IMG/VR virus record: IMGVR_UViG_3300047094_002472
DNA: 64,000 nt
Strand: one strand, 5' to 3'
From: a virus
Both the position numbers and the translations under genes were made by a program. Of this stretch, positions 24,254-53,304 are shown piece by piece; position 1 is the first letter of the stretch, and each line of letters starts with the position of its first letter. The notes below the pieces were generated by a model that did not search any database, was not told where the DNA came from, and saw nothing but the letters and a program-made list of their open reading frames with translations.

Positions 24254-27200
24254 GATTCTGGTCCTAATGTAATTATTTTTGTAGGCCTGTGGTTTGGTCT
24301 AGAGCAATTAAGTTTTATTTTTGATGAGTCTTCTATATTGGATACAGAAAACTGTGCTCCTCTAGCAAAGGTTGGACAACCCTCGCCTTCTGGGTTTATA
24401 GCTTCATACCCCATATCTACTAAATTCTGAATTGTTATTGATGATATTATATAATTTATTGCGGTGTCAAAATAACCAACCATAATATCGTTAGATAATC
24501 CTGGATAAGAATCGCGGTCTCCAAATGGTGCTGTTGAGGCTGGCCTAAATAGGTCTTCCCAGTGTCCTGATGGGGTTCCAGCTCCTCCTGTATTTTCTAA
24601 AGGTATTTTTGTTCTTGGCCAAGGCTCCATGTTTAGATTAACGTTGGGAAATGCACATTGACAATATTTTCTGACTGCTTTTTCATAGAGATTGTATGTG
24701 TTTGGCTGGGTTTCTCTAAGTAAGAATTGATTATCTATTAACCCATTTTCACTAACCTCTATATTTGTCCATAATGTACCTATGCCTATGGCATGTCCTA
24801 GTTCATGAACAAGAATTACTATTTTTTGAGCATTATTATAATTATTCCAGAATGCCGTATTTATCCATATATCAAACTCCACAGAGGTTCTTTTTATTGG
24901 ATTATTTCCGATAGGACCTGTTTCGCTAACAACAGCACAAGAAGCTATCCAGTTGTCTGTGGGATTATTGACCGCTTGAAAGTCTACTAATTCTATACCA
25001 TTCCAGTCTGGTCTAAAATTTCTAATATAGTTTGTATTTGCACCAGAAACACGCAAGTTCTGCATCCATCTGTTTGCGGCTTGAGTTAGTTGGTTTCTGA
25101 TAGTTGTATTAGCAATGAGACTAAAAGAGCCGGTATTGAATGCCGGGGCAGGTGGGGGTGCGGGGGTTGTTGTTGTTGGACGGGATAAGAATAGTTGTCC
25201 AGGCATTGCTACCGCTGAATATGGGCTATATCCATTTCCGATGCGGTTAACGCTGATTCTAAAACTGAAACTACCAAATCCTATATATTCTGTTAGTCCT
25301 ACTAAAAAGATGGTTCCTTGAGATCCTGGAGTGACACAAAGAGTGTACCCGCCAGAACAATTCGATGTTGTACTGAAATCAGTCTCTCTATAAAGGATAA
25401 TTCCACCTAAATTATTCAGGCTTGTCCATGCAAGAGCAACAGCTCCGGGTTTTGGTTGTTCTCCGACAGCTGGAGTATAGTAGTATTGTATGTCAACGTC
25501 TGGAGGTCCGCTGTACGCATATGACTGATTTACAGGATAATTAAATGTCAATTTGGCTTGTGTTGGATAGGCTGCTCCGCTGGGGATAAGATTTGATGTT
25601 GACCAAACTAGATTTTGAGGAGTGGGACTTGGGGTGGTTGTTGGGGGAATTGTAGTTGGTGCTATCGTTGTTGTAGTTGTTGGACGAACAGTGGTGGTCG
25701 GGGCTACTGTGGTTGTTGGCGTTGCTGTGGTTGTGGTTGTTGGCGTTGCTGTGGTTGTGGTTGTTGGCGTTGCTGTGGTTGCTGGGCCACTAGTTGTGGT
25801 TGGACTGCTTGTGGGCTGGCTTGTTGGTCCGCTTGTGGGCTGGCTTGTTGGTCCGCTTGTGGGCTGGCTTGTTGGTCCGCTTGTGGGCTGGCTTGTTGGT
25901 CCGCTTGTGGGCTGGCTTGTTGTTTCTATTAATTTAACGCAGTACCAAGCTGGTGGATCTATAGTTGTGGTTGGGCCAACCGTGGTGGTAGCTTGGCTGC
26001 AATTAGACTGTGAACAAGAAACACCTCTAATGTAATTGGTTTCTATGGTATCTGGGAACGGAGAATAGCACTGCTGCTCTGTTATATTGTTTATGCAGTC
26101 GATAAATGTTCTTTGTCCTGTACCTAGATTAACGCTGAAATAACAACAGGCGCTTCTCGGGTCTAGTGTTGTGGTGGGACCACCCGTAGTGGTTGGACCG
26201 CTTGTGGTTGGAACGCCCGTTGTGGTTGGACCGCTGGTGGTAGTTGGACCGCTGGTGGTAGTTGGACCGCTTGTGGTTGGAACGCCCGTTGTGGTTGGTC
26301 CGCTGGTGGTAGTTGGACCGCTTGTGGTTGGAACGCCCGTTGTGGTTGGACCGCTGGTGGTAGTTGGACCGCTGGTGGTAGTTGGACCGCTTGTGGTTGG
26401 AACGCCCGTTGTGGTTGGACCGCTGGTGGTAGTTGGACCGCTTGTGGTTGGTCCGCTGGTGGTAGTTGGACCGCTTGTGGTTGGAACGCCCGTTGTGGTT
26501 GGTCCGCTGGTGGTAGTTGGACCGCTTGTGGTTGGAACGCCCGTTGTGGTTGGACCGCTGGTGGTAGTTGGACCGCTTGTAGTTGGTACGCACCAATTAA
26601 TATCTGAGCAAGACTGCTGGGCGTAGAAGGTTTTTCCGTTCTGTGGTCTACATCTAGGAGCGGTCTCATTATTTGTGCAATTATTTTCTCCTTCACAACA
26701 CGCTCCGAAACATGCGCTTGTTGGTAATGCGGACTCGCATTCGGCCTGAGAAACATATTCTCCATTGCTGTTTACATAACTTGGCAGCTCGTAGCAGTGT
26801 GGTAATACCTCTATTGCATCTCCACAGGTTATTGACCATCTTTTTGGTATACTTGTGGTGGTCGGGCCGCCCGTGGTAGTTGGACCAGTCGTTGTGGTTG
26901 GACAATCTGCGCATTCTAGTTTAAAACAACCATTAATACTTACTAAATTATATCCGCAATTATTAATGCATGGTGGAACACTAATTGGCGGACAGGGGGT
27001 ACTTGTGGTAGTTGGGCCACTGGTAGTTGGAACGCTCGTGGTGGTTGGACCGCCAGTTGTGGTTGGGCCACTGGTAGTTGGAACGCTCGTGGTGGTTGGA
27101 CCGCCAGTTGTGGTCGGGCCACTGGTAGTTGGAACGCTCGTGGTGGTTGGACCGCTGGTTGTGGTTGGGCCACTGGTAGTTGGAACGCTCGTGGTGGTTG

Positions 27201-28743
27201 GACCGCCAGTTGTGGTTGGGCCACTGGTAGTTGGAACGCTCGTGGTGGTTGGACCGCCAGTTGTGGTCGGGCCACTGGTAGTTGGAACGCTCGTGGTGGT
27301 TGGACCGCTGGTTGTGGTCGGGCCACTGGTAGTTGGAACGCTCGTGGTGGTTGGACCGCCAGTTGTGGTTGGGCCACTGGTAGTTGGAACGCTCGTGGTG
27401 GTTGGACCGCCAGTTGTGGTTGGGCCACTGGTAGTTGGAACGCTCGTGGTGGTTGGACCGCCAGTTGTGGTTGGGCCACTGGTAGTTGGAACGCCCGTTG
27501 TGGTTGGTCCGCTGGTTGTAGTAGGACCGCCAGTTGTTGTGGGACATTCACAAATTTCATGTTGAGTTGGATCAAAATCGCAAAGACTAATTGCTAGACA
27601 GGCTGATTCAGAACTAAGAGTGTTAACAGATTCTGAAACTATAGATAAGTTATTCTCTGTTAAGATAGAAATTATGTCTCTAACACAAACTATTTGTCCT
27701 TCGCATGGAGAAGGAGTCGTGGTCAGACTTACACAGCCTACTTGTTCACAGGTCTCGCCTGGAGTGAATTGTGTAATTATTGAGGATGGTCTTGGAACCA
27801 ACATGCAGTTTTCGTATGTGGTTATGTTGCATCCTAAAAATGTTCCGTCTGATAGGCGGAAACAACAAGCTCCGGTTTGCGGTTGTTGTGTAGTAGTGGC
27901 ACTACCACACGGAGAGCCGTCTAGATTTAAACATACTAATTCTGGACAACCACTTTCCCCTATAGTTGTTGTACGATAACATGGAGCTTCGCAATCGCCT
28001 GTTATAAACAGGTCTGCGCATTTTGGAATAATTAAAACAGTACCACTAGTTGTAATAGAGTCGTTTGTTGTAATAGTAAAAGTAGAAGAATTTGATATTG
28101 TCGATACATTATAGGTTCCAGATATTGATAATCCAGTAATAGTCTCGAACTGTACTATAGACCCGGCAGAAAGTCCGTGATTTGGGAGAGTGACCTCTAT
28201 CGTATTTCCTTGCTGACTATACATTGCTTCGTTTGCGTTGTATGGTTTATACAAAACGTATGGAAGCTCTTCTGTTTTACTTAAAATAATATAGGAGGTA
28301 TTATCTGTAAAACTAGATAATGAATTAAAAATATTGGAAGGAGAATAGGAGAGATAGCCTGTGCCGTTGGCATTTGTTGTATATGCTGTTATTAGCTTAT
28401 CTTTAAATGCAGACTGAGATAGATTTACTGAATCTCCAAAATATTTTACGGTCCTTAGTGGCTCTCTGACTATATAAAAAATAGGAGCATCATAGTCTGG
28501 AGGGGTAGAAGGTATGTTCAGACTATATGGTAGTTGATTTGAATTACTTTCTATGAGATAAACACGATCTCTACTAAGAAAAGAGAGAGAATTGAAGTTA
28601 CTACTAGAAGAATAGGATACGTAGCCAGACCCCACACTATTAGTGGAATAGATATTCTTGATTCCCTGGCCTTGTAGATCGAAGATATTTGTTTGATCTC
28701 TTAACCACTGTAGAAATATAAGGGGTTTATTTACTAACATCAT
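24250..28743 (-). CDS. 1497-aa mucin-like protein with GACC Cys modules and C-terminal leishmanolysin (M8)-like metalloprotease
   Basis: PTTT repeat tracts; GACC/SACC modules; HELGHAIGIG...GTPSGHWED...NDIMVG. Confidence 0.8.
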   Translation of the reverse strand: MMLVNKPLIFLQWLRDQTNIFDLQGQGIKNIYSTNSVGSGYVSYSSSSNFNSLSFLSRDRVYLIESNSNQLPYSLNIPSTPPDYDAPIFYIVREPLRTVKYFGDSVNLSQSAFKDKLITAYTTNANGTGYLSYSPSNIFNSLSSFTDNTSYIILSKTEELPYVLYKPYNANEAMYSQQGNTIEVTLPNHGLSAGSIVQFETITGLSISGTYNVSTISNSSTFTITTNDSITTSGTVLIIPKCADLFITGDCEAPCYRTTTIGESGCPELVCLNLDGSPCGSATTTQQPQTGACCFRLSDGTFLGCNITTYENCMLVPRPSSIITQFTPGETCEQVGCVSLTTTPSPCEGQIVCVRDIISILTENNLSIVSESVNTLSSESACLAISLCDFDPTQHEICECPTTTGGPTTTSGPTTTGVPTTSGPTTTGGPTTTSVPTTSGPTTTGGPTTTSVPTTSGPTTTGGPTTTSVPTTSGPTTTSGPTTTSVPTTSGPTTTGGPTTTSVPTTSGPTTTGGPTTTSVPTTSGPTTTSGPTTTSVPTTSGPTTTGGPTTTSVPTTSGPTTTGGPTTTSVPTTSGPTTTSTPCPPISVPPCINNCGYNLVSINGCFKLECADCPTTTTGPTTTGGPTTTSIPKRWSITCGDAIEVLPHCYELPSYVNSNGEYVSQAECESALPTSACFGACCEGENNCTNNETAPRCRPQNGKTFYAQQSCSDINWCVPTTSGPTTTSGPTTTGVPTTSGPTTTSGPTTTGVPTTSGPTTTSGPTTSGPTTTSGPTTTGVPTTSGPTTTSGPTTTSGPTTTGVPTTSGPTTTSGPTTTGVPTTSGPTTTSGPTTTSGPTTTGVPTTSGPTTTGGPTTTLDPRSACCYFSVNLGTGQRTFIDCINNITEQQCYSPFPDTIETNYIRGVSCSQSNCSQATTTVGPTTTIDPPAWYCVKLIETTSQPTSGPTSQPTSGPTSQPTSGPTSQPTSGPTSQPTSSPTTTSGPATTATPTTTTTATPTTTTTATPTTTVAPTTTVRPTTTTTIAPTTIPPTTTPSPTPQNLVWSTSNLIPSGAAYPTQAKLTFNYPVNQSYAYSGPPDVDIQYYYTPAVGEQPKPGAVALAWTSLNNLGGIILYRETDFSTTSNCSGGYTLCVTPGSQGTIFLVGLTEYIGFGSFSFRISVNRIGNGYSPYSAVAMPGQLFLSRPTTTTPAPPPAPAFNTGSFSLIANTTIRNQLTQAANRWMQNLRVSGANTNYIRNFRPDWNGIELVDFQAVNNPTDNWIASCAVVSETGPIGNNPIKRTSVEFDIWINTAFWNNYNNAQKIVILVHELGHAIGIGTLWTNIEVSENGLIDNQFLLRETQPNTYNLYEKAVRKYCQCAFPNVNLNMEPWPRTKIPLENTGGAGTPSGHWEDLFRPASTAPFGDRDSYPGLSNDIMVGYFDTAINYIISSITIQNLVDMGYEAINPEGEGCPTFARGAQFSVSNIEDSSKIKLNCSRPNHRPTKIITLGPES
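25700..25925 (-). repeat. coding tandem repeats: 24-bp (QPTSGPTS) about 5 copies and 21-bp (ATPTTTT) about 3 copies
   Basis: Direct near-identical nucleotide repeats. Confidence 0.9.
26170..26590 (-). repeat. coding tandem repeats of GPTTTS/GPTTTGVPTTS units
   Basis: Near-identical 18-bp and 33-bp units. Confidence 0.9.
27005..27540 (-). repeat. 51-bp tandem repeat (GPTTTGGPTTTSVPTTS), about 10 copies
   Basis: Near-identical nucleotide units. Confidence 0.92.
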
Positions 28744-31698: not shown

Positions 31699-32646
31699 TT
31701 ATAGTACAGGATATAATATTCCATAGCCCTCATATTCTTTTTTACCAGAATACTTTGGATTGTCTAAAGACCTAGACTTTTTCTTAAATACATTTATATA
31801 GTCATCTGCTGTTTTTAGCATCCCGTCCATAGCAGAGTACTTTATTTTGCGACTATATGAAAGCAGCAGACTAGCACATCCCACAGCAAATGGATTACTC
31901 ATGCTTGTGCCACTCATCATAGCATATTTATTACCCGGAACAGAGCTAACTATCTCATGTCCAGGAGCTAAAAAGTCTAGCTCTTCTCCGCTACATGTAA
32001 AGCTGGTTCTTTCCAGATTCTTGTCTATCGCACCAATACTAACAACATTAGAATATTTACCAGGATACATTATAGAGGATCTTTCGCCAGCGTTACCAGC
32101 AGCAGAAAAGACTACAACATTTTTAGAACACGCATAATCTATTGCTTGCTTAATCGCCTGACTTGACGAAGGAGAACCAAGAGACATCGTGATTAGATCC
32201 GCACCATTATCTGCTGCCCAAGATACCGCCTCGGCTATGGCCCTAGTATCACCCAGACCATCATCATTCAATGCCTTGAGAGGCATTATTTTAGTTTTAG
32301 GGGCAACACCCACCATACCTAAACCATTGTCTGTGGCGGCGATTGTACCGCTAACATGAGAACCGTGACCATTACCATCAATGGGATCTTTATCTTCTAA
32401 AAAATTCTTACCTTGAATTAAGTTGTCTTTAAGATCGTCGTGATATAAATCGCAACCAGTATCTATTACTGCAACAACAACGCCTTCACCTTTAGAATAT
32501 TGCCATTGATCTTTTATATTAAATTTTGTAATTTCCCAACCACAATACTGACCACTAGAGGTTGATAAGCCATAAACGTTCTCTCTATCATATGGAAGAA
32601 GACCACAATCTTTTTTATTACGTCTATTTTTCATCATTTTCTCCAT
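31699..32646 (-). CDS. subtilisin-like S8 protease
   Basis: VAVIDTG, HGSHVSG, AAGN, SGTSMS. Confidence 0.92.
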   Translation of the reverse strand: MEKMMKNRRNKKDCGLLPYDRENVYGLSTSSGQYCGWEITKFNIKDQWQYSKGEGVVVAVIDTGCDLYHDDLKDNLIQGKNFLEDKDPIDGNGHGSHVSGTIAATDNGLGMVGVAPKTKIMPLKALNDDGLGDTRAIAEAVSWAADNGADLITMSLGSPSSSQAIKQAIDYACSKNVVVFSAAGNAGERSSIMYPGKYSNVVSIGAIDKNLERTSFTCSGEELDFLAPGHEIVSSVPGNKYAMMSGTSMSNPFAVGCASLLLSYSRKIKYSAMDGMLKTADDYINVFKKKSRSLDNPKYSGKKEYEGYGILYPVL

Positions 32647-33373
32647 TTATTGTTTTGTTTATCCAATCAATATACAAGCTGACTCTAGTATGTCCACTCT
32701 CGTCCCCATATGTTGAGTCTGGCTTTCCATCCATAGCCATAACACAAGAATTAATACCAGCTAATTTATTTCCAATAAATAATCCACCGCCACTATCCCC
32801 ACTACCTATAATAAACTCTAGTTCTGTTCTATTATGACGAGAAGGAGTGCAGACTAATAGTTTTCTATCTATAGATTCTATTATGTTAGAACCAGCCCGT
32901 CTTTTATCGTCACTGTATTTTACGCCTGTATTAAAAGTTCCATGTAAACCAAATCCTGATATGGAACACACCTCTCCTACCTCATCATCATCACTATAAA
33001 ATTCTGGATAAAAATCCAATCCAAGATCTTCTTCTGTATTGCCTAAAGCAATATCATATTCACCAAAATTATTTTCGTGATAGTTCTCATGATATGTTAC
33101 TGTCTCGACACATATTTTTTTGTCCCCAGAAGTAACATAGCAAGTCTCGCAGTTCTGTACAACATGGGCCGCTGTCATTACCCATCTTGGTTTTATTGCC
33201 ACAGCAGAGGCACAAAACGGCTTTCCATCCTTATATTTTCCGCAAACCTTTAAAACAAACTTGAATTTTGACCCATATTCCACATACTTTTCGTCTGGCG
33301 TATTTGGATCTATTGTGCCACCAAATGAGATAGAAGCTACCATAAATATGGCTAAAGCTAAAAGGAGTTTCAT
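32624..33373 (-). CDS. secreted trypsin-like S1 protease
   Basis: Signal peptide, TAAHV, YDIAL, GDSGGG. Confidence 0.9.
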   Translation of the reverse strand: MKLLLALAIFMVASISFGGTIDPNTPDEKYVEYGSKFKFVLKVCGKYKDGKPFCASAVAIKPRWVMTAAHVVQNCETCYVTSGDKKICVETVTYHENYHENNFGEYDIALGNTEEDLGLDFYPEFYSDDDEVGEVCSISGFGLHGTFNTGVKYSDDKRRAGSNIIESIDRKLLVCTPSRHNRTELEFIIGSGDSGGGLFIGNKLAGINSCVMAMDGKPDSTYGDESGHTRVSLYIDWINKTINGENDEK

Positions 33374-33388: not shown

Positions 33389-33700
33389 TCATGGCTTATT
33401 TTTCACCTTACTATAGTACACCGCACAGTCATGTTCGACATCTTTATTCCAGCTCTTATAATCCATAAAATGCCCAAATGTTAAATGACACTGATTATCG
33501 CATAATGTTATCAAATTTAATGGGTCTAATTCTAGTTCGGGGTATTTATGTACTGGTTTTATATGATGAACCTCTAACCCTTTTGTTTTTCCACAAGCGG
33601 AACATTTAGGGTATTTTGCTAAGTGTTCTCTTCTTAGATCTTTCCATCTAGGAGATCTACTTGCATATCTGATTTCTTTTGGTTTTAAAAAATTAAACAT
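33389..33700 (-). CDS. small HNH endonuclease
   Basis: CxxC...EVHH.....NLITLC...CH. Confidence 0.85.
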   Translation of the reverse strand: MFNFLKPKEIRYASRSPRWKDLRREHLAKYPKCSACGKTKGLEVHHIKPVHKYPELELDPLNLITLCDNQCHLTFGHFMDYKSWNKDVEHDCAVYYSKVKNKP

Positions 33701-33772
33701 TTCGCTATACTTTTATCGTGTATAATATAATTGTAATACGCTCACAAAAAGAACGCTTAAGAAGGAGAATCC

Positions 33773-34135
33773 ATGATTTCCGGCAAGGTATGGGGAACTA
33801 CTCAGTGTATTTTTAAACATAATAATGTATCTATACACAGAATAGACATAAAAAAGGGAGGAACCTGCTCAAAACACTATCATTTACACAAATATAATAG
33901 GTTTTTTGTTGAGAATGGAAATCTTAAGATTCTAGTCTGGCAGAAAGACTATGACTTAGTTGATGAAACCATACTATCTCCAGGTCAATCGACAGAAATC
34001 AAACCCGGACTATTTCATCAGTTTGTAGCACTAGAAGACACGATAGCTTATGAGATATATTATTTAGAACTAGAAGATAATGACATTATTAGAGATTCTT
34101 GTGGTCATTTAATAAGTCCTAATAGAAAGAATTAA
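33773..34135 (+). CDS. cupin (sugar isomerase-like)
   Basis: KVWG, CSKHYH, PGLFHQF, EIY...DIIR; upstream CGTGTA motif and AAGGAG SD. Confidence 0.8.
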   Translation: MISGKVWGTTQCIFKHNNVSIHRIDIKKGGTCSKHYHLHKYNRFFVENGNLKILVWQKDYDLVDETILSPGQSTEIKPGLFHQFVALEDTIAYEIYYLELEDNDIIRDSCGHLISPNRKN

Positions 34136-34137
34136 TT

Positions 34138-35691
34138 ATGAATTCATGGGATTGTTTCGACACTTTGATAGCTAGATCTTTTCATAGTCCTAAATCTATT
34201 TTTGATATAGTGGGTAAAAAAATTGGAGATTTATCCTTTACGCAAAAAAGAATAGACGCTGAAAGACTCTCTAAGCACAAGACATACGAAGATATATATG
34301 CACACTTACCACAATATGACTCCACACTAGAGATACAAACAGAAAAAGAGTATTCTTTTCCTATTTTAGAAAACTGGAATCGCGTAAAAGATGGAGATAT
34401 TATTATCTCAGACATGTATTTATCGTCTTCGCAGATTCGAGACCTGCTAGACCATCACGGTTTCAATAAGGATATAAGAATTATATCTACATATGGTGGT
34501 AAACATTCTGGAAGAGTATGGTCTTCTCTAAAAAACTCTAAAATTAATATTGAAAATCATTATGGGGATAATTTACATTCTGATATCAAAATGTCTAGAA
34601 GTTTTGGTTTCAATAGTATTTTTTTTGGTGGCAATGAATTTACACAAGAAGAGCGGTACTTGAGCGACAATAATCAATATTTTTTAGCAGCTCTTATGCG
34701 TAGGGCTAGACTATCGAATCCATATTTTGCACCAAAGTCTTCGTTTATTCATAGTGCTGGTTCTTTTCAAAATATAGCTGGTCATGACTGGATTGAAGAA
34801 ATCCATGGCCAAGTATATCTATATACTTTAAATAAAAATTTTGAAGACCATTTTCTTTTAAGAAACAAAAAATATAAGAATACTTTTGTGAAACTATATT
34901 TCGACGGCACCAGTCTTGTTTGTCACGACGCACACACCTACACTCCTCTTTATAAAGGAATTTGGACTGAAGACCCATTAAACTATGAATCCCCAACCCA
35001 GAGATTGATTTGGATAGATCAATCACAATTTAATTTGCCTATTTTAGTTTTAACAGCATTAGCCCTACCGACAGATAAAAATTTAGTTTTTTCACAAAGA
35101 GATTGTTTATACCTTCGTCAAATATATAACATTCTGTTAGAAAAGAACTCTCCAATGCTAGAGGTTTGTCGCAGATCTTATCTTAAACCATTCAGTCAAG
35201 AATATATAAACTACATTATATCTACCACAAAAAATTCTACTATAGTTGATTCACATGGTAGCGGATACTCATCAAATATGTTCCTTCAAACATATAATCA
35301 TACTTGCGATGTTTATCATATATTTAAACATTATTTAGACATGACACAAAAAAAACGTCTTGGATTCTTTGAAGACTTTGAGATAGGACACCAAATGGAG
35401 TGTACTTCTTTAGGCGGAAGAACATGGTTTTGTCCTGGAAGATCATTTGAAAAATACAATATCCATGACACAGGAAGACTTATCGGCTGGCAAAGCAATG
35501 CTCCTGTTAGAAATGTTCCCGAACATGATAAAATTATTGCCACAACTATTGAAAAAGCAATAAATAATACCTGCTCTTTCCTTCATCTGTATAAAGATTT
35601 GCTTGTAGTCAACAATGAAATACTGCCAACTCTAGCTAAAAAACTTAAGAATACTTTTACTGATATAGTGGTGAATACTATAGGAAAATAA
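34138..35691 (+). CDS. HAD-like hydrolase of polysaccharide-locus type
   Basis: WDCFDTLIAR, ISDMYL, GKHSG, HYGDNLHSD. Confidence 0.8.
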   Translation: MNSWDCFDTLIARSFHSPKSIFDIVGKKIGDLSFTQKRIDAERLSKHKTYEDIYAHLPQYDSTLEIQTEKEYSFPILENWNRVKDGDIIISDMYLSSSQIRDLLDHHGFNKDIRIISTYGGKHSGRVWSSLKNSKINIENHYGDNLHSDIKMSRSFGFNSIFFGGNEFTQEERYLSDNNQYFLAALMRRARLSNPYFAPKSSFIHSAGSFQNIAGHDWIEEIHGQVYLYTLNKNFEDHFLLRNKKYKNTFVKLYFDGTSLVCHDAHTYTPLYKGIWTEDPLNYESPTQRLIWIDQSQFNLPILVLTALALPTDKNLVFSQRDCLYLRQIYNILLEKNSPMLEVCRRSYLKPFSQEYINYIISTTKNSTIVDSHGSGYSSNMFLQTYNHTCDVYHIFKHYLDMTQKKRLGFFEDFEIGHQMECTSLGGRTWFCPGRSFEKYNIHDTGRLIGWQSNAPVRNVPEHDKIIATTIEKAINNTCSFLHLYKDLLVVNNEILPTLAKKLKNTFTDIVVNTIGK

Positions 35692-35720
35692 ATTATTCTA
35701 TACAACATAGATTCTTTTAA

Positions 35721-36566
35721 CTAAAGAATAGGCTTTCTATCAAATCTATCCAAAATATTCTTAAGACTACCGTTTGATCTGTCAATATTGAGAGCTAAAG
35801 CCCCGGCCAAGACTTGTTCCAATTTATCCTTTTTATTTATTCTTACCGGATGATCACCCAGCGCTACCACTGGAACACCTAAGATACCCGCCTCATATAA
35901 GCAAGTAGAGGATATTGATACTACAACAGACGCCTTAGAGGCTAGTTCTAAGAAGTCTGTACAGTCGGAATACTCCGCTCTGTTAAAACTTCTTTTTCTT
36001 TTAGAGTTTGGGTGTGCCTTGACTACAATCTTATTGTTTGGGTACATATATTCAACATGAGCAACAAATTCTTCCATATTATTATAATGAGAATTATGTA
36101 GCACTTGGGTGTCGTTTTCTATTTGCATAGGAACCAGCACATATCCCTCATCTCTTAAAGGATATTTTGTTTGCAGTTCTTCTCTTTTAGAATACATAGA
36201 GTCGATATCTTGCTTGGTTATCCAAGATAAATCTTTACACAGAATAGAACTTCCACAGAATCCTAAAGGATCAACAAAAAAATTGTCTGACTGTGGTAGC
36301 ATACCCCATTCTAAATAGCATTTTGGTATACCTCTGAGTTCGCATATTTTAGATACTGATAATGCTGTATGCTGATAGCCATTCCAAATAACAGCAAAAT
36401 TTGCATACTTGATCTTATCTGCTGATTTAAAGACCTCATTCTTAATACCTTCCCACCAGTAATCGCACTCGTATTCATTAGCAAATCTCTTAATAAGATT
36501 TACTTCTCTCTCATTATTAAAACCACAATGAACAACAAATGGCTTTTTGGTAGATTTATCTTCCAT
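35721..36566 (-). CDS. KpsS/KpsC-like capsule-synthesis glycosyltransferase
   Basis: LEWG.LP, DPLG, PMQ..ND, KAHP, SSTCLYEA. Confidence 0.75.
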   Translation of the reverse strand: MEDKSTKKPFVVHCGFNNEREVNLIKRFANEYECDYWWEGIKNEVFKSADKIKYANFAVIWNGYQHTALSVSKICELRGIPKCYLEWGMLPQSDNFFVDPLGFCGSSILCKDLSWITKQDIDSMYSKREELQTKYPLRDEGYVLVPMQIENDTQVLHNSHYNNMEEFVAHVEYMYPNNKIVVKAHPNSKRKRSFNRAEYSDCTDFLELASKASVVVSISSTCLYEAGILGVPVVALGDHPVRINKKDKLEQVLAGALALNIDRSNGSLKNILDRFDRKPIL

Positions 36567-37455
36567 ACGATCCTATGACTCTTCCCTTTTGAGTTCTGAC
36601 TACAAACCCCATCCTAACTAGAAATGGCTCTATACTATTCTCTATAGTCTCTATTGCAATACCAGTCAAAGAAGAAATACTCTTAAGTCCAAGGGGATTA
36701 CCTTTATGCTTGACTAGTATATCTAAATACATTCTATCATAAAGATCTAGCCCGTTCCCATCTACCCCCTGACTATTAAATATATCGTCTACTCCCATAT
36801 TCTTATCTTTATAGTATGCGACACAATTTTTGTACCACTGAAGTCTACCATTAAGGATTCTAGGAGTTCCCTTGCTTCTTTTCGCTATTTCTAGTGCGGT
36901 ATCCTGGTCTAAATCTATTCCTAGCTTTTTAGCGTTCAATTCGGCTAGTTTAGCAAGATCATCGTGGCTATAAAAAGAAAGATGTTCCTTAATCTGAAAA
37001 CGATCATAAAAGGGCTGACTAAGACTACCACCACTTGTTGTGGCTCCAACCAAAGTAAATGCCGGAATATCTATTTGTTCTGGTTTATCTTCTACCATTA
37101 TACTAAGAACAAAGTCTTCCATTACTGGATATAGAAATTCTTCTACTAGTTTTGGTAATCTATGAATCTCGTCTATAAAAAGAACAGATCTTGGTGCCAT
37201 ACCCATTAAGTACGGAAGTATATTCTTTACGCTTCTTACGTTTGCCGCGTTGAGAGTATATAGGTTGACTTCCATCTCGTTTGCTATGGCACTCGCTATA
37301 GTGGTCTTGCCTAGCCCCGGAGGGCCGTCTATTAAAACATGAGGCATCACACCACCAGAGTTTTTACAACCCACCACAGAGACTCTGAGCCGCTCCACAA
37401 CATCTTGCTGACCAACAACATCATCAAATCTCGTTGGTCTAATAATACTAGCCAT
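36556..37455 (-). CDS. ruvB: Holliday junction branch migration motor RuvB (start MASIIRP)
   Basis: RP..F.D.VGQ, GPPGLGKTT, FIDEIHRL, EEFLYPVMEDF, GATT, DRF, GTPRI, IEPFL...RTQKGR. Confidence 0.95.
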   Translation of the reverse strand: MASIIRPTRFDDVVGQQDVVERLRVSVVGCKNSGGVMPHVLIDGPPGLGKTTIASAIANEMEVNLYTLNAANVRSVKNILPYLMGMAPRSVLFIDEIHRLPKLVEEFLYPVMEDFVLSIMVEDKPEQIDIPAFTLVGATTSGGSLSQPFYDRFQIKEHLSFYSHDDLAKLAELNAKKLGIDLDQDTALEIAKRSKGTPRILNGRLQWYKNCVAYYKDKNMGVDDIFNSQGVDGNGLDLYDRMYLDILVKHKGNPLGLKSISSLTGIAIETIENSIEPFLVRMGFVVRTQKGRVIGSYGR

Positions 37456-37894
37456 GCTTTCCTCCAAATGTTTCCAATGTATATTTAACTAAGTTGCCAA
37501 TATCTTCGGTCTTTATTTTGTCATATGCGTCTACCAGAAGTTCTCTAGCCTCTTTATCGGTAAAACCATACGTACTTAATATTTTAGCAGACCTGTCTAG
37601 TAGGTCAATCGGAATTTTAACAACTTCTCTATCCTCTGACTCTGGCTTTTTGTTAACGATCTCCGTATCGACAGGGATTTCTTTTTTGGTTTTAGGTTTA
37701 CTATAAAGGATCTTTATCTTAGATATTCTTTTTGGTTGAAAAACAGTTCCGCAATCACAAACAACTTTGAAGTTTTTTGTTTGAGTCTCTTTAAGAGATA
37801 GCCAGTGCTGTATGGTACATTCTGTGTTTGGACACTCATATTTAAAATGAGCGTCTAGACTAATCGGTTTCAGGCTTCTCTTTTTTGTTTTCAT
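37448..37894 (-). CDS. Zn-ribbon protein with RuvA domain III-like C-terminus
   Basis: YECPNTEC..H...VCDCG N-terminus; SAKILSTYGFTDKEARELL...DIGNLVKYTL C-terminus; overlaps the ruvB start. Confidence 0.6.
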   Translation of the reverse strand: MKTKKRSLKPISLDAHFKYECPNTECTIQHWLSLKETQTKNFKVVCDCGTVFQPKRISKIKILYSKPKTKKEIPVDTEIVNKKPESEDREVVKIPIDLLDRSAKILSTYGFTDKEARELLVDAYDKIKTEDIGNLVKYTLETFGGKHG

Positions 37895-38282
37895 CTTTTG
37901 TCCAAAATACGAAGTCATTAAGTTCGTCATCATACGCAGACTCTATCAGACCTTGCTTACTTAAGTTTGCCAACAGGTTGCTGACAAGTCTAGAGTTTAA
38001 AGCCTCAAGAATATCAGCAAATATTTTCTCATCAATAATATATCTTACCTCTTTGGTATTCTTGTTTACCTGCTTTTTAGCATTTTGCTCAACAATAACC
38101 AAAGATTCTTTTTGTGTTAAAACAGAATTCAGTTCTTTTATATCTTCCTCAGAAGCGCCTGTTAGAAGTTCAGTAAAATCATCTGCATTTTCTATCATGT
38201 CCTTACCGAAACTATTAAAAACAACTAACCTAGCACTATCTGTAAACTTTTCTATATTGTCGATAATAAATTTTTGACTCAT
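37860..38282 (-). CDS. hypothetical protein (probable paralog of 53725..54126)
   Basis: Shared LA.L...G.(I/L)E.A(Y/W)DDE....(V/I)FW C-terminal motif. Confidence 0.6.
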   Translation of the reverse strand: MSQKFIIDNIEKFTDSARLVVFNSFGKDMIENADDFTELLTGASEEDIKELNSVLTQKESLVIVEQNAKKQVNKNTKEVRYIIDEKIFADILEALNSRLVSNLLANLSKQGLIESAYDDELNDFVFWTKDENKKEKPETD

Positions 38283-38954: not shown

Positions 38955-40040
38955 TTATCCAATACAAAATTTATCACTAATTTGAGCAGCAAGATCTTTG
39001 GCAGAACTAGCCAAAAAACGATTGTTACTAAAGTATAGTGCTGTGGATGCTTGGTTTAGGTACTCGACAACTGTTTTTAAAAGTTTGATCTGTGATCCAT
39101 CAAGGTTTATATCCTCTTCTGGCAGAGCATCGTGTGCATCCTTAGACCCGTCCTCATCGCCTACAAATCTGTCACCATAAACAGACTGAACAAGCATTGG
39201 ATCGCCATAAGCCCTCATCTGATTCAGAATATCTGTTGCAACATTTACTGATACAGGAACACCGGTAATATCGGACTTCTTATAAGCCTTGGAATATTCC
39301 TTAAACCATTCGTCACTAGTCTTATTGGCTACAAGATTAACAAGAGCAGAAACACCATCAAGAGCTTGTTTAAGATGTTCAATATTTACCGGGTTACCAT
39401 TTGATCCCGACAAAATACTAGTAAAATAAGGCTGCTTTCCCTCCCAGGCTTTTCTCCACCAAGTATATGGGATTCGATAAATCTGATTAATTTTGATGGC
39501 TCGGGCATCACCCTCAAAGTGGTTTACCAGTTTCTTTTGAATACCACTCCAATAAGTCTTGTTAGGACTATTAGCGTTTGGGTTTAGAATCCAATAGCAC
39601 TGATAACCATTGCGAGTATCAACAACCCAACTTGGCTTGACAGGAAAGTTATTAATCTTATTCAAGAATTCCTTCTTCTTTCGCATAACAATACTAGGCT
39701 TGAAATAAGACCCCTTATCGTCTCGTCCAGCATCCATATCAACAAAACAAGCACGAATCCTGCTAATAGCATATTGCTTGCGACCACCATTAACATAAAA
39801 ATAAGCATCGGCACCCTGACTATCATTTGCAATAGCAACAGTAGTAAGATGATCCGTATGATTCATACTACTGATCTTCTTGCGAGGATCACCGTTATAA
39901 CAGAAAATATGCTGACCACCAAAAGAAGCCAAAAACTTATTTCTCAATGCTATCTGAGTATCTGTTCCAATAGCACTATGAGTCTTATCGAACGGATTAA
40001 AAGCCAAAGTATCGCTAAACATCTGTTTTCCCTTTTCCAA
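38955..40040 (-). CDS. RepB'-like primase (AEP superfamily)
   Basis: YFYVNG, CFVDMD, PSWVVDT.NGYQCYW, RIPYT; start may be 40022. Confidence 0.7.
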   Translation of the reverse strand: MEKGKQMFSDTLAFNPFDKTHSAIGTDTQIALRNKFLASFGGQHIFCYNGDPRKKISSMNHTDHLTTVAIANDSQGADAYFYVNGGRKQYAISRIRACFVDMDAGRDDKGSYFKPSIVMRKKKEFLNKINNFPVKPSWVVDTRNGYQCYWILNPNANSPNKTYWSGIQKKLVNHFEGDARAIKINQIYRIPYTWWRKAWEGKQPYFTSILSGSNGNPVNIEHLKQALDGVSALVNLVANKTSDEWFKEYSKAYKKSDITGVPVSVNVATDILNQMRAYGDPMLVQSVYGDRFVGDEDGSKDAHDALPEEDINLDGSQIKLLKTVVEYLNQASTALYFSNNRFLASSAKDLAAQISDKFCIG

Positions 40041-40189: not shown

Positions 40190-41050
40190 TCAATACTGAT
40201 TATCGTAATCCTCGTCCTCGTAATCTTCTTCATCTTCTTCGTCGAACTGACCCCAATAACTTTCATCATAGTCATTAAGATAATCATCCTCATCATCCTC
40301 ATACTCGTCCTGAGTAAAATCGGCTGAATAAAGAGGCTTGAGTAGTTCGCCTTCGTATTCCCCAACCACTTCATATCGACAGGTACGAAGTTTTTCACAA
40401 TTACAGTCGCTTGGAACGCTTACCACATCCTTGGGATTGATTTTAACAATCACGATACGATCACCGCTTTCCACACTACCATAACTAGCAACATAATTTA
40501 ATGCACCAGCATGGAGACCATCAGAGCATCCACGACTACGATTATCGTCCACCTTTGCTCGTTGCATACTAACTACCTGACCAACACTGTTATCAAATAC
40601 CCCACGGTACTTATCCTTATAATCTGAACGAACAGCCTTATAGGCGAGGAAGTGACCGTCCTCCGTAATAGGCAGATGTTCATGCTCCAAGAAATCATAG
40701 AGTTCCTTTTGACTCTGCATACTTGGATTCTCCATAAGATTATTTAGAAAGGTCACAAGCGGTTCAAAGGGCAGACCCTTGCTCATAAACTCAAGGATAC
40801 GCTTACTGATACTGCCGTGAACAACTTCACCCTCATAAGTAACTTGTCCATTCTTGATCTCGACCAAACCATCACTAAAATTAGCAACAGCCTTTTCTAC
40901 ATCAACAATATCCAAGAGTTCTTCTGCGGTTGCTGTGGGCAGAGCCTCAAGGATCATCTTGTAGTTAATATGATCCGGCAACACCTGATAACTCTGGTTA
41001 TTAAGAACCAGCGTCAAATTACCATCGACAAACATAAAAGGAACAGCCAT
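40190..41050 (-). CDS. rIIB: rIIB-like protein
   Basis: ELYDFLEH..LPITEDG.FLAYK, CSDGLH, VKINPKDVVSVP.D...KLRTCRYEV. Confidence 0.85.
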   Translation of the reverse strand: MAVPFMFVDGNLTLVLNNQSYQVLPDHINYKMILEALPTATAEELLDIVDVEKAVANFSDGLVEIKNGQVTYEGEVVHGSISKRILEFMSKGLPFEPLVTFLNNLMENPSMQSQKELYDFLEHEHLPITEDGHFLAYKAVRSDYKDKYRGVFDNSVGQVVSMQRAKVDDNRSRGCSDGLHAGALNYVASYGSVESGDRIVIVKINPKDVVSVPSDCNCEKLRTCRYEVVGEYEGELLKPLYSADFTQDEYEDDEDDYLNDYDESYWGQFDEEDEEDYEDEDYDNQY

Positions 41051-41075: not shown

Positions 41076-43763
41076 TTACCTAATTAAACTACTCAACTGA
41101 ATCTTAAACAAATCAACATTGTCTTGACTCATTTGACTAAACCAATCTTTACCATTATTATTGTAATAACTATTTCGCTCATCAAGTTGATTGATCGGGT
41201 TCTTGTTAGTTTTGAGTTCTCGCAGGTTCCCGCTAACTTGGTGACTACCAAGAATATACTTTAGCATCGGGTTCTTGTCAACCTCCGCTTTAATATTTTC
41301 TCTAATCTCACTAATTTTTGGCAGAGTATACTTCTCGGATACTTCCGTCTTGATTATTTTGGCATACTCAATAGCCAGAGTAGCCTTGTCCCCACCGTAT
41401 AGTCTGTTTTCGATAGTTTGTAGCAGATAATTGTACGCAACATTACCATTACGAATCTGGTTACTGTCAACGTCTTTAATGCCAAGATCACTCAACAGTT
41501 TTGTCATATGGTTTAGGTAATCCGTTTCATTGAATCTGGTTATAGCAAACTTAGAATCATGAACAGTATGGGCAAAGAACTCCAAAATCATGGTATTATC
41601 AACTGCTTCTGACAGTTTCTTGTTGCTAATAAATTTACCATAGTCTAACCCAAAGATATTGAGCATATGGAACATAAACTGTCTATCCACAGACCCATAG
41701 TTATAGTACCTATAGGAGTCGGACTTTTCTTGCTTTTCATACTCTCTCTTGGCATACTCAATAATAGCGTTGTACGAGGCAATATTTTTAAAATGCTTCT
41801 GTGCAACAACCTTGAGTTGACGCTTTAGAAACTCATTGAAATTAGTAAGTGTATGACCATCGTTTTCAAGTTTAGCGACAAACGCACTCTTGATAGCATA
41901 GATCTTATTTTTTCCAATCAAGTCCTTCATTATATGCTTGATATGATCGTCATGTAGTGTGAGAGAAATATCTGCGATCTCTGGAAAGCCAGAACCCTCT
42001 TGAGACTTATATCTTACCATAGGCACATAAACAATCTCGTCTGTTTCCAGAAAGTCATTCAACTGATCTTCCGATAGCATCTTAAGACACTGAGCATCGT
42101 TATACGGATTACTAATGCTCTTGCTCTTGGCGTCTGCCCCATAGATGAAAAATACATCTTGGTCGCTGACACTACCCTTGCTATTTCTAGCGGACTGCTT
42201 TCTTGGGCCGGAATTTTGGGTTAGATGCTTATAGTCAGAGACTTTAAGAATGTTATCCTCGCCCACATCCTTTCGCAACTTATCAAAACCTTCGTGACTT
42301 TGGGTATAATCCTTACTATCAAGCATCATATACGCAAAGCAATCGTTCTGATTACAATATCTTGTGATAATCTTTTTGGCTGTTTCTTCGCTCTTAACAT
42401 CACAAACAAAGAAAGCCATGCTACCATTCTTCTTGGTGGAATTCCAGTAAGAATATCCCTTGCCAGTCAAGGTTTCGTGATGAATCTTATCTGTGAGAGC
42501 AACAAGCCTACGAGAACGGTAGCCGCTGCTCTTATAGTTAAAGACATACAGACTCTTACCGGCTGGGATTTTATACTCAAGATCATTACCAGAATTAATC
42601 TGATGCTCCTTGCCGGTATCATCCTTCCAAGATGCACCAACACCCCAACCGCCCGCCAATTCATTCATTGTATAATACAGACTGATGGCTTCTACCTTGG
42701 TTTTGGCGGCGGCGATCTTTTTGGAGAATTCCTCCTTCATTTCCATATAGATGTCTTGAGTCTTTTGACGCAGCGTTTTAATAACCTGCTTCGTATACTG
42801 CAAGCCTTCTCTAGAAACGTCCATTTCCAATTCGCCAATTCCAAAATCCAGTTCAAGATAGAGACCCGAGTGAATGATCTCTCCAATAAAACTCTTCCAA
42901 CTATCAATATCCGCCTTCTGGAAAGCACGATTCCACCTCTGGATATGATCTGGAGTATCCTCTTTCTCTTGCCCAACAATTTGTGCAGTATGCACAGGAT
43001 ATGCGATATTGCCCATGATAGCCACAACGCCGCTATCAATACGATGATAATTATTAGGATAATACTGACTATCGTTATTAAGTCTACAGACTCTCCATCC
43101 AGTACCACTGATTACAATATTGGTATTGCTATACTTATGGTCTTGGAGATTTGGTGCAACACCACCCTCAATAATAGGCTTCATTCGGAAATAATGAAAA
43201 ATCCTCATAGCCTTGTTAGTAAACTCAGCAAAATCCTGCTGCTTAACAGCAAAACTAATTTCAAGACCGTTTGGTTCTTTTGTGTCGGAAGTATTAAAAA
43301 GATTCAGAGTAGGAACACCACTATCATCAATAGCAGCGATATACGTATACTTCTTGCCGTTAAAATAAGACGCAGTAGTAAAACTTTTTGTATATGCAAA
43401 CGGACTCTTAGACCCTAGACCCAAGCACCCCACAAAATCATTGCTATCGTTCTTATTTGAAGCACCGTAGGTAGTATACAGGTTCTCCATATCTTCCTGA
43501 CTAAGACCAGTGCCATAGTCTCGCACCATAAAAGTAGGATTGGCAGCGGTAGGAAGAAATACCTTAAAGGGATTCTTATTTCCGGCAGAAATATGGCTAT
43601 CATAAGCATTGGTTGAAAGTTCACGAATAGCGGCCATTACTTTATCGGAATAAAGAGAGTCCGACAAAATCTTAAACATCTTGCTCGTCTGAGCGATATT
43701 AAACTGGTTCTTGCTAGAAACTCCAGAACTGTGAGTTTCGATTGTACGATCTGCCAACTTCAT
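41076..43763 (-). CDS. rIIA: rIIA-like protein (GHKL ATPase N-terminus)
   Basis: ILSDSLYSDK..A.IRELSTNAYD, RDYGTGLS, GCLGLGSKSPFAY, SREGL. Confidence 0.9.
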   Translation of the reverse strand: MKLADRTIETHSSGVSSKNQFNIAQTSKMFKILSDSLYSDKVMAAIRELSTNAYDSHISAGNKNPFKVFLPTAANPTFMVRDYGTGLSQEDMENLYTTYGASNKNDSNDFVGCLGLGSKSPFAYTKSFTTASYFNGKKYTYIAAIDDSGVPTLNLFNTSDTKEPNGLEISFAVKQQDFAEFTNKAMRIFHYFRMKPIIEGGVAPNLQDHKYSNTNIVISGTGWRVCRLNNDSQYYPNNYHRIDSGVVAIMGNIAYPVHTAQIVGQEKEDTPDHIQRWNRAFQKADIDSWKSFIGEIIHSGLYLELDFGIGELEMDVSREGLQYTKQVIKTLRQKTQDIYMEMKEEFSKKIAAAKTKVEAISLYYTMNELAGGWGVGASWKDDTGKEHQINSGNDLEYKIPAGKSLYVFNYKSSGYRSRRLVALTDKIHHETLTGKGYSYWNSTKKNGSMAFFVCDVKSEETAKKIITRYCNQNDCFAYMMLDSKDYTQSHEGFDKLRKDVGEDNILKVSDYKHLTQNSGPRKQSARNSKGSVSDQDVFFIYGADAKSKSISNPYNDAQCLKMLSEDQLNDFLETDEIVYVPMVRYKSQEGSGFPEIADISLTLHDDHIKHIMKDLIGKNKIYAIKSAFVAKLENDGHTLTNFNEFLKRQLKVVAQKHFKNIASYNAIIEYAKREYEKQEKSDSYRYYNYGSVDRQFMFHMLNIFGLDYGKFISNKKLSEAVDNTMILEFFAHTVHDSKFAITRFNETDYLNHMTKLLSDLGIKDVDSNQIRNGNVAYNYLLQTIENRLYGGDKATLAIEYAKIIKTEVSEKYTLPKISEIRENIKAEVDKNPMLKYILGSHQVSGNLRELKTNKNPINQLDERNSYYNNNGKDWFSQMSQDNVDLFKIQLSSLIR

Positions 43764-47440: not shown

Positions 47441-47839
47441 CTAGTTAGACTTTCTTCGCAACCAGCGAGAATATTCTGGTGCTTTATATCCTGTTTTTCT
47501 TGACATCTCATTATTATTGATTTGATTTATAATAATAGACGTTGGCAAACTTTTAACACCCATCTTTGCCTTAAAGTCTGGATTCGCTTCTATGTCTATA
47601 ATACATACAATATATCTATCTATGTCTTCTATGTTTGATAGATCTTTTTTAAGTTGCTGACAGTATCCGCACCAATCAGCACTAAATATTAAAAGTATTG
47701 GCATATCGGCTTCTTTTGCCAAAACCTTTGCTGTTTCATAATCGTCTTTAATGACGTATGAAGTTTCAGAAACTTGAGCGTTTGCTAAAGTGGAGATAAA
47801 TAAACACAATAGAGTAACAACTGTGGACAATCGTTTCAT
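47441..47839 (-). CDS. exported thioredoxin-like protein
   Basis: Signal peptide (ANA); FSADWCGYC; SLPT cis-Pro loop. Confidence 0.85.
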   Translation of the reverse strand: MKRLSTVVTLLCLFISTLANAQVSETSYVIKDDYETAKVLAKEADMPILLIFSADWCGYCQQLKKDLSNIEDIDRYIVCIIDIEANPDFKAKMGVKSLPTSIIINQINNNEMSRKTGYKAPEYSRWLRRKSN

Positions 47840-47860
47840 GGTTTACTCCACCATATCGAC

Positions 47861-48130
47861 TTAATTATTTTCTAGTGTGACTTTAATAATAGCATAGTCT
47901 TCTCTATCGCTATCTATGATTTGTATTTCTGTGACCCTTCCTTTTCCAAAAAAATCATAACCAATATGCAAAAATGGGCCACCCTCAAAATCTGCATATG
48001 TTGGACTACTTGGGTCTACTTCAAAGCCTATTCTTAAAAACCCGCTATCTCCTTCGACTATAAACTGATTATCATTTATTTGAGTTACAGTTCTTTTCCT
48101 TCCATATCTAGATTTTATATTACTAGACAC
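47861..48130 (-). CDS. hypothetical protein
   Basis: DFEGGPF motif. Confidence 0.55.
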   Translation of the reverse strand: MSSNIKSRYGRKRTVTQINDNQFIVEGDSGFLRIGFEVDPSSPTYADFEGGPFLHIGYDFFGKGRVTEIQIIDSDREDYAIIKVTLENN

Positions 48131-48314
48131 AAACTACCTCTTGAGTACTAACATGATCTTCTTTATTTACAGACGCTAGACCATTAAGAACGTCTTTTAG
48201 AGTTTTATTTTCTTCTTGTAGTATTTGAATAATTCTATCAGCATCCGAAAGTGCCATACTTAGAACCTTGACTTTCTTAGCCAACTCATCACCCACATAA
48301 TTATTCATGCTCAT
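48123..48314 (-). CDS. hypothetical coiled-coil protein
   Basis: AGGAG SD. Confidence 0.5.
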   Translation of the reverse strand: MSMNNYVGDELAKKVKVLSMALSDADRIIQILQEENKTLKDVLNGLASVNKEDHVSTQEVVCV

Positions 48315-48356
48315 GATAAACTCCTTTTTAGGAATATACTACATATATTAAATACA

Positions 48357-48641
48357 CTATTTGATATCAATTTCGACCAGAAATCGCCTCAAGTCTTTCA
48401 ACTGGGCATGTGTTAAAACTATTTGATCTGAATATGGTTTCGAGTGTACCAAAACCTGCCAGATATATCTTAATTTTTGCCATAATGACAGGCTTCTGGC
48501 ATATGACGGGTAGGAGTAAATAGATAGGTCTGCTATTTGGCACTCATGGTCATACTCTATATATAGAATCTCGCCTTTACAATCACAAGGCACAAATACC
48601 GATGTTGTTTTATCTTTACTGTATTTTGTCACGCATCCCAT
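48357..48641 (-). CDS. hypothetical protein
   Basis: ORF chain. Confidence 0.5.
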   Translation of the reverse strand: MGCVTKYSKDKTTSVFVPCDCKGEILYIEYDHECQIADLSIYSYPSYARSLSLWQKLRYIWQVLVHSKPYSDQIVLTHAQLKDLRRFLVEIDIK

Positions 48642-48834
48642 ATAGGTGCGATCCTCCTTGATCTTCCTTTATTTCAGTAAATTCTTGTGGACTTAATAGA
48701 TATGTGACTTGAGAAGATTCTCCCCAAATCTCATACAGTTGAGAGTTTAGCCTTCTGGTAATATAGCCATATTCTGTTATGGCGTGGTTATTCCCATCAT
48801 TAGTATCAATTAGAACCCTTACTCCTGCTGACAT
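48616..48834 (-). CDS. hypothetical protein
   Basis: ORF chain. Confidence 0.5.
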   Translation of the reverse strand: MSAGVRVLIDTNDGNNHAITEYGYITRRLNSQLYEIWGESSQVTYLLSPQEFTEIKEDQGGSHLYGMRDKIQ

Positions 48835-48937
48835 TTTTTGGTTCCTTTTTCTTAAAGATTCTATCGTAGTTATCAGCCCATGTTTTTGGGTCTACGCTCT
48901 TTGGTCTGCGTTTCGACCCCTTACCATTTTCACTCAT

Positions 48938-49636: not shown

Positions 49637-49672
49637 ATTTACTCCAATGTTTGTTCCAAAGTGTATGCTCCG

Positions 49673-49701
49673 ATTCTACACTAAAGGTATCGGCTTGTCA
49701 A
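49673..49701 (-). promoter_or_regulatory. sigma70 promoter with CCGAT box
   Basis: TTGACA-AGCCGATACCTTTAGTG-TAGAAT. Confidence 0.8.
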
Positions 49702-49712
49702 GTGTCATTACT

Positions 49713-51306: not shown

Positions 51307-51332
51307 ACCAAATCCTCCTGTGTTATCCCAAC

Positions 51333-52542: not shown

Positions 52543-52548
52543 CTTAAC

Positions 52549-53302: not shown

Positions 53303-53304
53303 AA

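Follow-up and report, generated by a model that had tools for sequence, protein, structure and literature searches.

Results

Gene organization at the ruvB locus

The stretch of DNA under study, referred to here as the window, comprises 64,000 nucleotides of the IMG/VR virus record IMGVR_UViG_3300047094_002472 and is part of a large uncultured phage. Its minus strand carries a ruvB gene (36556–37455) and, overlapping it on the upstream side, a gene for a protein of 148 residues (37448–37894, stop codon included) that we name ZnA, or "mini-RuvA". An earlier interpretation of the same DNA, made without database searches and called the sequence-only reading below, had proposed that RuvB is paired here with a zinc-ribbon adaptor instead of RuvA.

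The start of ruvB is probably the ATG at 37455, giving a protein of 299 residues, because this codon has a GGAGG motif 6 nt upstream and is the start used in relatives. An alternative TTG at 37467 (open reading frame 36556–37467) is cut off by a stop codon in the ruvB of many relatives. The encoded protein is an intact AAA+ motor, with all three RuvB domains of Pfam in order and above their cut-offs: RuvB_N (E 2.3e-46; 157.9 bits, full profile), the lid AAA_lid_4 (8.8e-10; 38.7 bits) and the C-terminal winged helix RuvB_C (7e-19; 68 bits). Its best match in the PDB is likewise a RuvB (9dx4_A, E 1.1e-66). Walker A (GPPGLGKTT), Walker B (DEIH), sensor 1, the arginine finger and sensor 2 are invariant in 20 relatives and align with those of Escherichia coli RuvB; ATP-driven branch migration of Holliday junctions would be the function of the phage protein. 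At its tip, the presensor-1 hairpin lacks 4 residues that the E. coli enzyme has (LSIMVEDKPE----QIDIP in the phage, LDIMIGEGPAARSIKIDLP in E. coli), the gap being evident in the 9dx4_A alignment, and the hydrophobic residues of the strands are kept. The sequence-only reading had thus described both the motor and its shortened hairpin correctly.

The phage protein is ~36–41% identical to the RuvB homologs retrieved in a phage-collection search. In that collection of cultured phages, each near-full-length RuvB among the matches listed (51 of 93 records) belongs to an unannotated fragment, Wolbachia WO, streptococcal prophage or metagenome-derived record, and the remaining matches listed are clamp loaders. 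We take these near-full-length matches to be probable cellular DNA, and if so the presence of RuvB in a phage of lytic type is unusual in itself. A prophage or host origin of the ruvB studied here was considered and rejected: the gene lies between rIIB and phage protease genes, on collinear contigs of 112–238 kb, some of which bear terminal repeats.

The start of ZnA at 37894 corresponds to M14 of a 161-residue open reading frame and was set by its homologs. At the junction with ruvB (37448–37465, minus strand), the Shine-Dalgarno sequence of ruvB (GGAGG, 37461–37465) is contained within ZnA, and the ruvB ATG (37453–37455) precedes the ZnA stop codon TAG (37448–37450), with the result that stop and start overlap by 8 nt in ATGGCTAG. 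The overlap had been seen from the letters of the window, and the coupling proves general in the family. Spacing between the two genes ranges from -29 to +3 nt in 34 related loci. Directly after ZnA, ruvB follows in 34 of 35 ZnA-anchored viral loci, the remaining one being a 395-bp fragment, and also in 3 divergent members. Flanking genes vary between loci; ZnA, where present, always adjoins ruvB. On its own upstream side, the start of ZnA overlaps by 35 nt with a further gene, up140 (37860–38282, minus strand), which had gone unnoticed in the sequence-only reading and is taken up below.

Domain architecture of ZnA and relationship to RuvA domain III

ZnA consists of a zinc ribbon (residues 9–66), a disordered linker (67–92) and a three-helix domain (93–148) only, and includes neither domain I nor domain II of RuvA. 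The ribbon (37697–37870, minus strand) is a basic C4 module with the motif C21-x4-C26 ... C46-D-C48 and conserved H30 and W31. Across 148 family representatives, which are clusters at 50% identity, C46 is invariant, and conservation reaches at least 90% for C21, C26, C48, H30 and W31. The predicted local distance difference test score (pLDDT) of the ribbon is 82–95. The AlphaFold model shows a confident N-terminal β domain (residues 10–65, pLDDT 87–95), wherein C21 and C26 are located in the loop joining strands 16–20 and 29–33, and C46 and C48 lie beside a short strand pair. The net charge of the ribbon is +9, equal to the median of the family, and no other part of the protein is as well conserved (70% identity versus 43% for the C-terminal domain). 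The linker (37619–37696, minus strand) has a pLDDT of 36–40, with residues 70–91 below 50 in the AlphaFold model. It varies in both length (6–80 residues across the family) and sequence (14% identity to the window copy).

The C-terminal domain (37451–37618, minus strand) is modelled by AlphaFold as three helices (96–108, 113–127, 132–147) with a pLDDT of 87–91. Within the turn joining the first two helices, G110 is nearly invariant (invariant among 42 closer homologs) and F111 is highly conserved. Judged from sequence profiles and predicted fold, this domain is a homolog of RuvA domain III, and the assignment is made because four independent lines of evidence agree. Firstly, the profile built from the 42 homologs retrieves domain III of Thermus thermophilus RuvA (1IXS_A) as first match in the PDB (E 0.0029), and the profile of the 148 representatives does so with E 3.5e-4, RuvA making up 7 of its 9 matches at E<10. 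Secondly, RuvA_C is the commonest Pfam family among the members (23 of 148, best E 1.5e-5), and a six-frame RuvA_C search of the genome of one relative returns exactly the ZnA C-terminus, at 20 bits. Thirdly, Foldseek places 1ixs_A first (TM score 0.75 on the target; root-mean-square deviation, rmsd, 1.6 Å over 46 columns), followed by other RuvA and then by UBA domains. Fourthly, a Foldseek-independent aligner (VIA) gives RuvA domain III all of the first 4 places among 48,161 chains (Z 7.7, 7.3, 6.8 and 6.7; rmsd 1.5–2.2 Å over 48–51 residues).

RuvA_N, representing the OB domain I, has no match in the window ZnA and does not appear when the 25 commonest Pfam families are listed, either for the 42 or for the 148 members. 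A helix-hairpin-helix as in domain II is likewise missing from the 25 commonest Pfam matches listed for the 148. The ribbon cysteines, the likeness of the C-terminus to domain III, which is above chance, and the lack of domains I and II, which extends to complete genomes of relatives, had all been anticipated by the sequence-only reading.

The C-terminus could alternatively be a generic UBA-like module binding a partner other than RuvB, as three-helix domains of the UBA and CUE type also appear in the fold lists, at lower ranks. UBA-like domains have the same small fold, the individual E-values given above are modest, and Z values below 8 are common for small helical domains. The ZnA profiles nonetheless favour RuvA_C, UBA matching 3 of the 148 members (best E 0.066) compared to the 23 matched by RuvA_C. 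Domain III of RuvA comes ahead of UBA in two sequence methods and two structure methods, and no ubiquitin system is found in this context.

Predicted docking of ZnA on RuvB

In bacterial RuvAB, the binding site of RuvA domain III on RuvB is a composite hydrophobic surface formed by helix α3 and the presensor-1 hairpin, and domain III bound there promotes nucleotide exchange and activates the ATPase (PMC9477746); it also serves as a tether for the motor. Co-folding of full-length phage RuvB with ZnA residues 88–148, which the sequence-only reading had suggested as a check, was performed from our own alignments. The complex scores 0.66, 0.66 and 0.67 in three runs, compared to 0.00 for the best of 3 controls. 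All contacts (100%) are shared by the runs, and the pLDDT of the partner is at least 85. The predicted interface comprises residues 74–85 and 117–130 of RuvB, hence helix α3 and the presensor-1 hairpin, and residues 101–111 and 132–146 of ZnA, including the conserved Y-G-F turn (109–111) and helix 3. ZnA is thus predicted to dock on the canonical RuvA domain III site of RuvB.

A pass over the controls at the canonical interface also speaks against a UBA-like module with a different partner. Under that explanation, the adjacency of ZnA and ruvB would come merely from the collinearity of the genomes. All loci do belong to one phage group, with RuvBs ~67–98% identical, and for this reason synteny by itself is weak evidence. 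Nevertheless, the two genes stay together wherever ZnA is present even though the genes around them change, and we regard the generic UBA-like module as highly improbable.

ZnA as an adaptor and its repeated loss

The explanation that we prefer, and consider probable with some reserve, is that ZnA is a pared-down RuvA-like protein that acts as an accessory adaptor for the RuvB of the phage. The domain III homolog would dock on RuvB, and the flexible linker of variable length would connect it to the strongly basic C4 ribbon. The ribbon would stand in place of the OB and helix-hairpin-helix domains of RuvA and would most likely keep the complex attached to DNA or to a partner that is itself bound to DNA.

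Several results weigh against the adaptor. The ZnA copy of the window, taken alone, is below every RuvA_C threshold; it is not significant by itself and the case for domain III therefore rests on the family. The mark passed by the co-fold is reached by 58 of 80 solved complexes versus 2 of 110 mismatched pairs, counts that hold only roughly here as our own alignments were used, and the pass may reflect memory of the solved complexes of RuvA domain III with RuvB. The ribbon has no specific structural relative. Modelled alone, it resembles only generic ribbons (ZitP, LysW, S27e, IBR; Z up to 3.2, Foldseek E-values >0.7), and because these nearest folds are generic and weak, neither a subfamily nor a function can be read from it; DNA binding is suggested just by charge and conservation.

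The loss of ZnA from part of the loci falls on this side of the balance as well. A RuvB-anchored survey of the best 80 of 405 RuvB relatives in IMG/VR, all at least 73% identical, reveals the order up140–ZnA–ruvB in 64 loci. ZnA is missing from the other 16 (L056, L058, L063, L064, L066, L070, L075, L082, L083, L085, L086, L105, L106 and L114–L116; about 2860–3040 in each), where the deletion is clean and up140 adjoins ruvB with 10–60 nt between them. Five CheckV-complete genomes of the ZnA-less kind, two of them with terminal repeats, lack ZnA throughout, as well as RuvA_C and RuvA_N. As positive control, five complete genomes that do bear ZnA are matched by the same ZnA profile at E 1e-42 to 1e-52, and the search would therefore have found ZnA in the ZnA-less ones. 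On a maximum-likelihood tree of RuvB (59 distinct sequences, 12 ZnA-less rows), the losses are scattered: 7 changes are needed, at least 3 of which are forced by well-supported branches, and a single change is allowed by 0 of 200 bootstrap trees. Remnants of deletion persist at some junctions, most clearly in L058. What is left of ZnA consists of its opening codons, shared with the end of up140, and of its closing TTTGGAGAAAA..ATGGCTAA segment, used by ruvB as ribosome-binding site. These losses look like independent deletions, at least 3 in number, judging from the tree and the junctions.

Deletion of ZnA on repeated occasions with retention of RuvB means that ZnA is no obligatory replacement for RuvA. 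It is dispensable to the module, of which RuvB and up140 are always kept. The notion that ZnA acts "instead of RuvA" was consequently an overstatement of the sequence-only reading, and the linkage in the gene neighbourhood that it had proposed to survey holds in one direction, from ZnA to ruvB, and is incomplete in the other.

Deletions of this kind also fit a dispensable modulator. ZnA would on this view be a regulator or decoy that occupies the domain III site, rather than a targeting adaptor. It might tune the nucleotide cycle of the phage RuvB, prevent host RuvA from reaching the phage motor or bind and block host RuvB; junctions would in that case be recognised by host RuvA or by up140, and the ribbon would be for folding or for partner binding. 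In bacterial RuvAB, domain III alone is a nucleotide-exchange factor (PMC9477746), in line with such a role. The docking surface of RuvB offers a further indication that is uncomfortable for the adaptor as well: its residues show no significant fall in conservation in the lineages without ZnA (column permutation, p 0.14), as if another user of the site existed. The conservation drop in ZnA-less rows is 0.033 at the interface versus -0.004 elsewhere, and the largest single-residue drop in the whole of RuvB is that of the interface residue M84. Two features of ZnA do not sit well with this role. It would be odd for a mere decoy to have the ribbon as its most basic and best conserved part, and the translational coupling of its gene to that of the phage RuvB suggests a partner made in stoichiometric amounts. 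We judge a regulator or decoy to be unlikely, and retain the adaptor as the preferred role of ZnA.

up140, a constant companion of RuvB

up140 encodes an acidic protein of 140 residues (net charge about -11) whose C-terminal tail, KPETD, is conserved. All 80 RuvB-anchored loci have it upstream, adjoining either ZnA–ruvB or, where ZnA is deleted, ruvB alone. Conversely, RuvB follows in 76 of 76 informative loci of an up140-anchored survey (71 with three genes, 5 with up140 and RuvB only). At one up140-anchored locus (L169, about 2911–3389), the RuvB profile matches just a short piece, beginning ~200 nt after up140, and the ruvB there may be interrupted or rearranged. Searches of the PDB and Pfam with up140 give no significant match, merely weak hints of a winged helix, and the Atlas model is poor (pLDDT 0.46). 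The idea that up140 might be a relative of ZnA was rejected (profile–profile probability 0.7%).

up140 may be the core partner of RuvB. A bolder arrangement, possible if on balance doubtful, is a three-part motor in which RuvB and up140 form the core and ZnA is an optional plug-in that couples it to a particular DNA structure or replisome component by means of its domain III handle and a zinc ribbon that would bind DNA. Recognition of junctions or forks would in that arrangement have moved off the OB and helix-hairpin-helix core of RuvA, with up140 possibly a winged-helix protein, a proposal that we hold equally tentatively.

Distribution of the ZnA family

ZnA has 78 close homologs, and the family is abundant, extending at E≤1e-3 to at least 379 clusters (50% identity) in a set of 1.84 billion representatives. 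All members come from uncultured phage or metagenome contigs. The 150 best entries are 80–185 residues long and nearly all have two domains, few being shorter or N-terminal only; a search for fused or longer forms of ZnA returned none, which is weak evidence. A scan of cellular genomes from 185,579 species revealed no true homolog. Its two matches, both in metagenome-assembled genomes of Flavobacteriales, were rejected: the matching motif, NFKVVCDC, is situated inside an open frame of 461 residues which, in the one match checked, appears by sequence to be a phosphoglucosamine-mutase-like gene. Neither the DNA of the locus (blastn) nor ZnA (tblastn) has a match among 50,697 deposited phage records, and no paper describing a RuvB–ZnA module was found in a literature search.

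Near letter-for-letter copies of the stretch are present in lake-water and freshwater metagenomes with dates from 2016 to 2024. No RNA dataset is included among the sequencing runs listed as carrying it.

Genomic context

Just upstream of the RuvB module lie rIIB (40190–41050; PHROG match 2.5e-74) and rIIA (41076–43763; 1.3e-112), and the left part of the window has genes for a phage-tail-repeat protein and for glycosyltransferases. Farther along, the minus strand from 47441 to 59293 holds a cluster of genes for DNA repair and nucleotide metabolism, a notable repair load for a phage of the lake surface. It includes thioredoxin (47441–47839), an Ogg-like glycosylase (48938–49636), an ATP-dependent DNA ligase (49999–51342), the UV-damage endonuclease UvdE (56578–57492) and ThyX (58640–59293). 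Also part of this cluster, and outside the operon of ruvB, is a gene of the endonuclease VII family (52204–52542; Pfam PF02945, 8e-11, 42 bits compared to a cut-off of 23.6), whose product is a candidate junction resolvase. Of 10 related records searched, 6 contain a homolog of it, all 6 being among the 8 complete genomes, and 4 of 5 relatives carry a RecA-like gene. The endonuclease VII, ligase, UvdE and Ogg-like genes of the window, together with the RecA-like gene of the relatives, support the view from gene content that the phage is equipped with a recombination and repair toolkit that includes a resolvase candidate.

The sequence-only reading had seen no ruvC and had advised checking the rest of the genome for canonical ruvA and ruvC. 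Carried out on relatives, this check returned RuvA_N in none of ten related phage records (8 of them CheckV-complete), and neither RuvC nor RusA in the 5 of these ten that were searched for them (3 complete). The statement on ruvC thus extends to the relatives searched, with the qualification that a resolvase candidate of another family, the endonuclease VII of the window, had been overlooked.

Other features of the region may be recorded. The gene directly 3′ of ruvB in the relatives L044 and L047 is trypsin-like; in the window, ~3.2 kb of extra DNA (33389–36566) separates the two. This insert contains an HNH endonuclease gene (33389–33700), a cupin gene (33773–34135, plus strand), a gene for a 517-residue protein with no assigned function (34138–35691, plus strand) and a glycosyltransferase-like gene (35721–36566), and looks like a mobile or variable island. 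Beyond it, genes for a subtilase of family S8 and for the trypsin-like protease adjoin one another (31699–33373, minus strand), and both are kept beside the ruvB module in relatives; the trypsin-like product has a hydrophobic, signal-like N-terminus. Between rIIB and the ruvB module, a gene for a 361-residue protein (38955–40040, minus strand; phrog_3123) is found in only 12 of 34 related loci, and motifs in its sequence (FVDMD, NGYQCYW) remind of primase-polymerases. An open reading frame of 1497 residues without Pfam match (24250–28743, minus strand) lies in a stretch that stands out by a guanine-cytosine (GC) content of up to 0.51, compared to ~0.36 elsewhere, and by a strongly positive GC skew.

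Discussion

RuvAB is the textbook machine of branch migration, in which RuvA recognises the Holliday junction and runs the nucleotide cycle of RuvB via its domain III. By its sequence features, the phage module is best understood as a variant of the RuvAB system. It shares with bacterial RuvA–RuvB (PDB 1IXS/1IXR, the 7PBL series and 7X7P/7X7Q; PMC9477746) the three-domain architecture of RuvB, and a partner whose domain III homolog, placed behind a flexible linker, is predicted to sit on helix α3 and the presensor-1 hairpin. The differences are nonetheless substantial. Unlike bacterial RuvA, ZnA lacks the OB domain I and the helix-hairpin-helix domain II, and has a basic C4 zinc ribbon of 60 residues instead. 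Compared to the E. coli enzyme, the phage RuvB has a hairpin 4 residues shorter and is without ~18 N-terminal residues. RuvC is missing from the relatives searched, ZnA is naturally dispensable, and an acidic third protein is always linked to RuvB. Finally, the module is borne by a phage of lytic type that has rIIA and rIIB.

A RuvB-binding module without the junction-binding core has a precedent in the isolated domain III of RuvA, which has a regulatory role of its own. Work by Nishino and colleagues, about 2000, is said to have found that the isolated domain modulates the ATPase of RuvB by itself. That domain is an engineered fragment, whereas ZnA represents a natural family of at least 379 clusters to which a zinc ribbon has been added.

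For the biological pathway, the recombination-dependent replication of phage T4 affords a useful comparison. It involves the recombinase UvsX, the branch-migration helicase UvsW and endonuclease VII. The present phages resemble T4 in having a RecA/UvsX-like recombinase (in relatives), endonuclease VII, a ligase and rIIA/rIIB, and RuvB–ZnA would fill the branch-migration role. A difference is that the motor of T4 is a helicase of superfamily 2 and the one here an AAA+ RuvB. Ordinary processing of Holliday junctions or forks is the simplest role for RuvB–ZnA, because endonuclease VII, the ligase and repair enzymes are encoded alongside, and a RecA-like recombinase in relatives. Delivery of the motor to another substrate, as put forward in the sequence-only reading, is pure conjecture. 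Working together with the recombinase, endonuclease VII and the ligase, RuvB–ZnA would contribute branch migration or fork remodelling to recombination-dependent replication and repair.

New in this study are the repeated deletions of ZnA, the invariant pair of up140 and RuvB, and the endonuclease VII gene in the window. The significance of the family lies in a natural separation of the two jobs of RuvA, with domain III kept on a very small module that would bind DNA or a partner, and in naturally occurring deletion variants, in which RuvB is retained with no RuvA-like protein left. up140 is added as a new protein always linked to RuvB. If the three-part arrangement were true, it would constitute a natural modular AAA+ translocase with swappable targeting. 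The family offers an experimental handle on the effect that domain III itself has on the motor and on the re-aiming of an AAA+ translocase, as well as on the way in which large freshwater phages without UvsW-type helicases may carry out branch migration.

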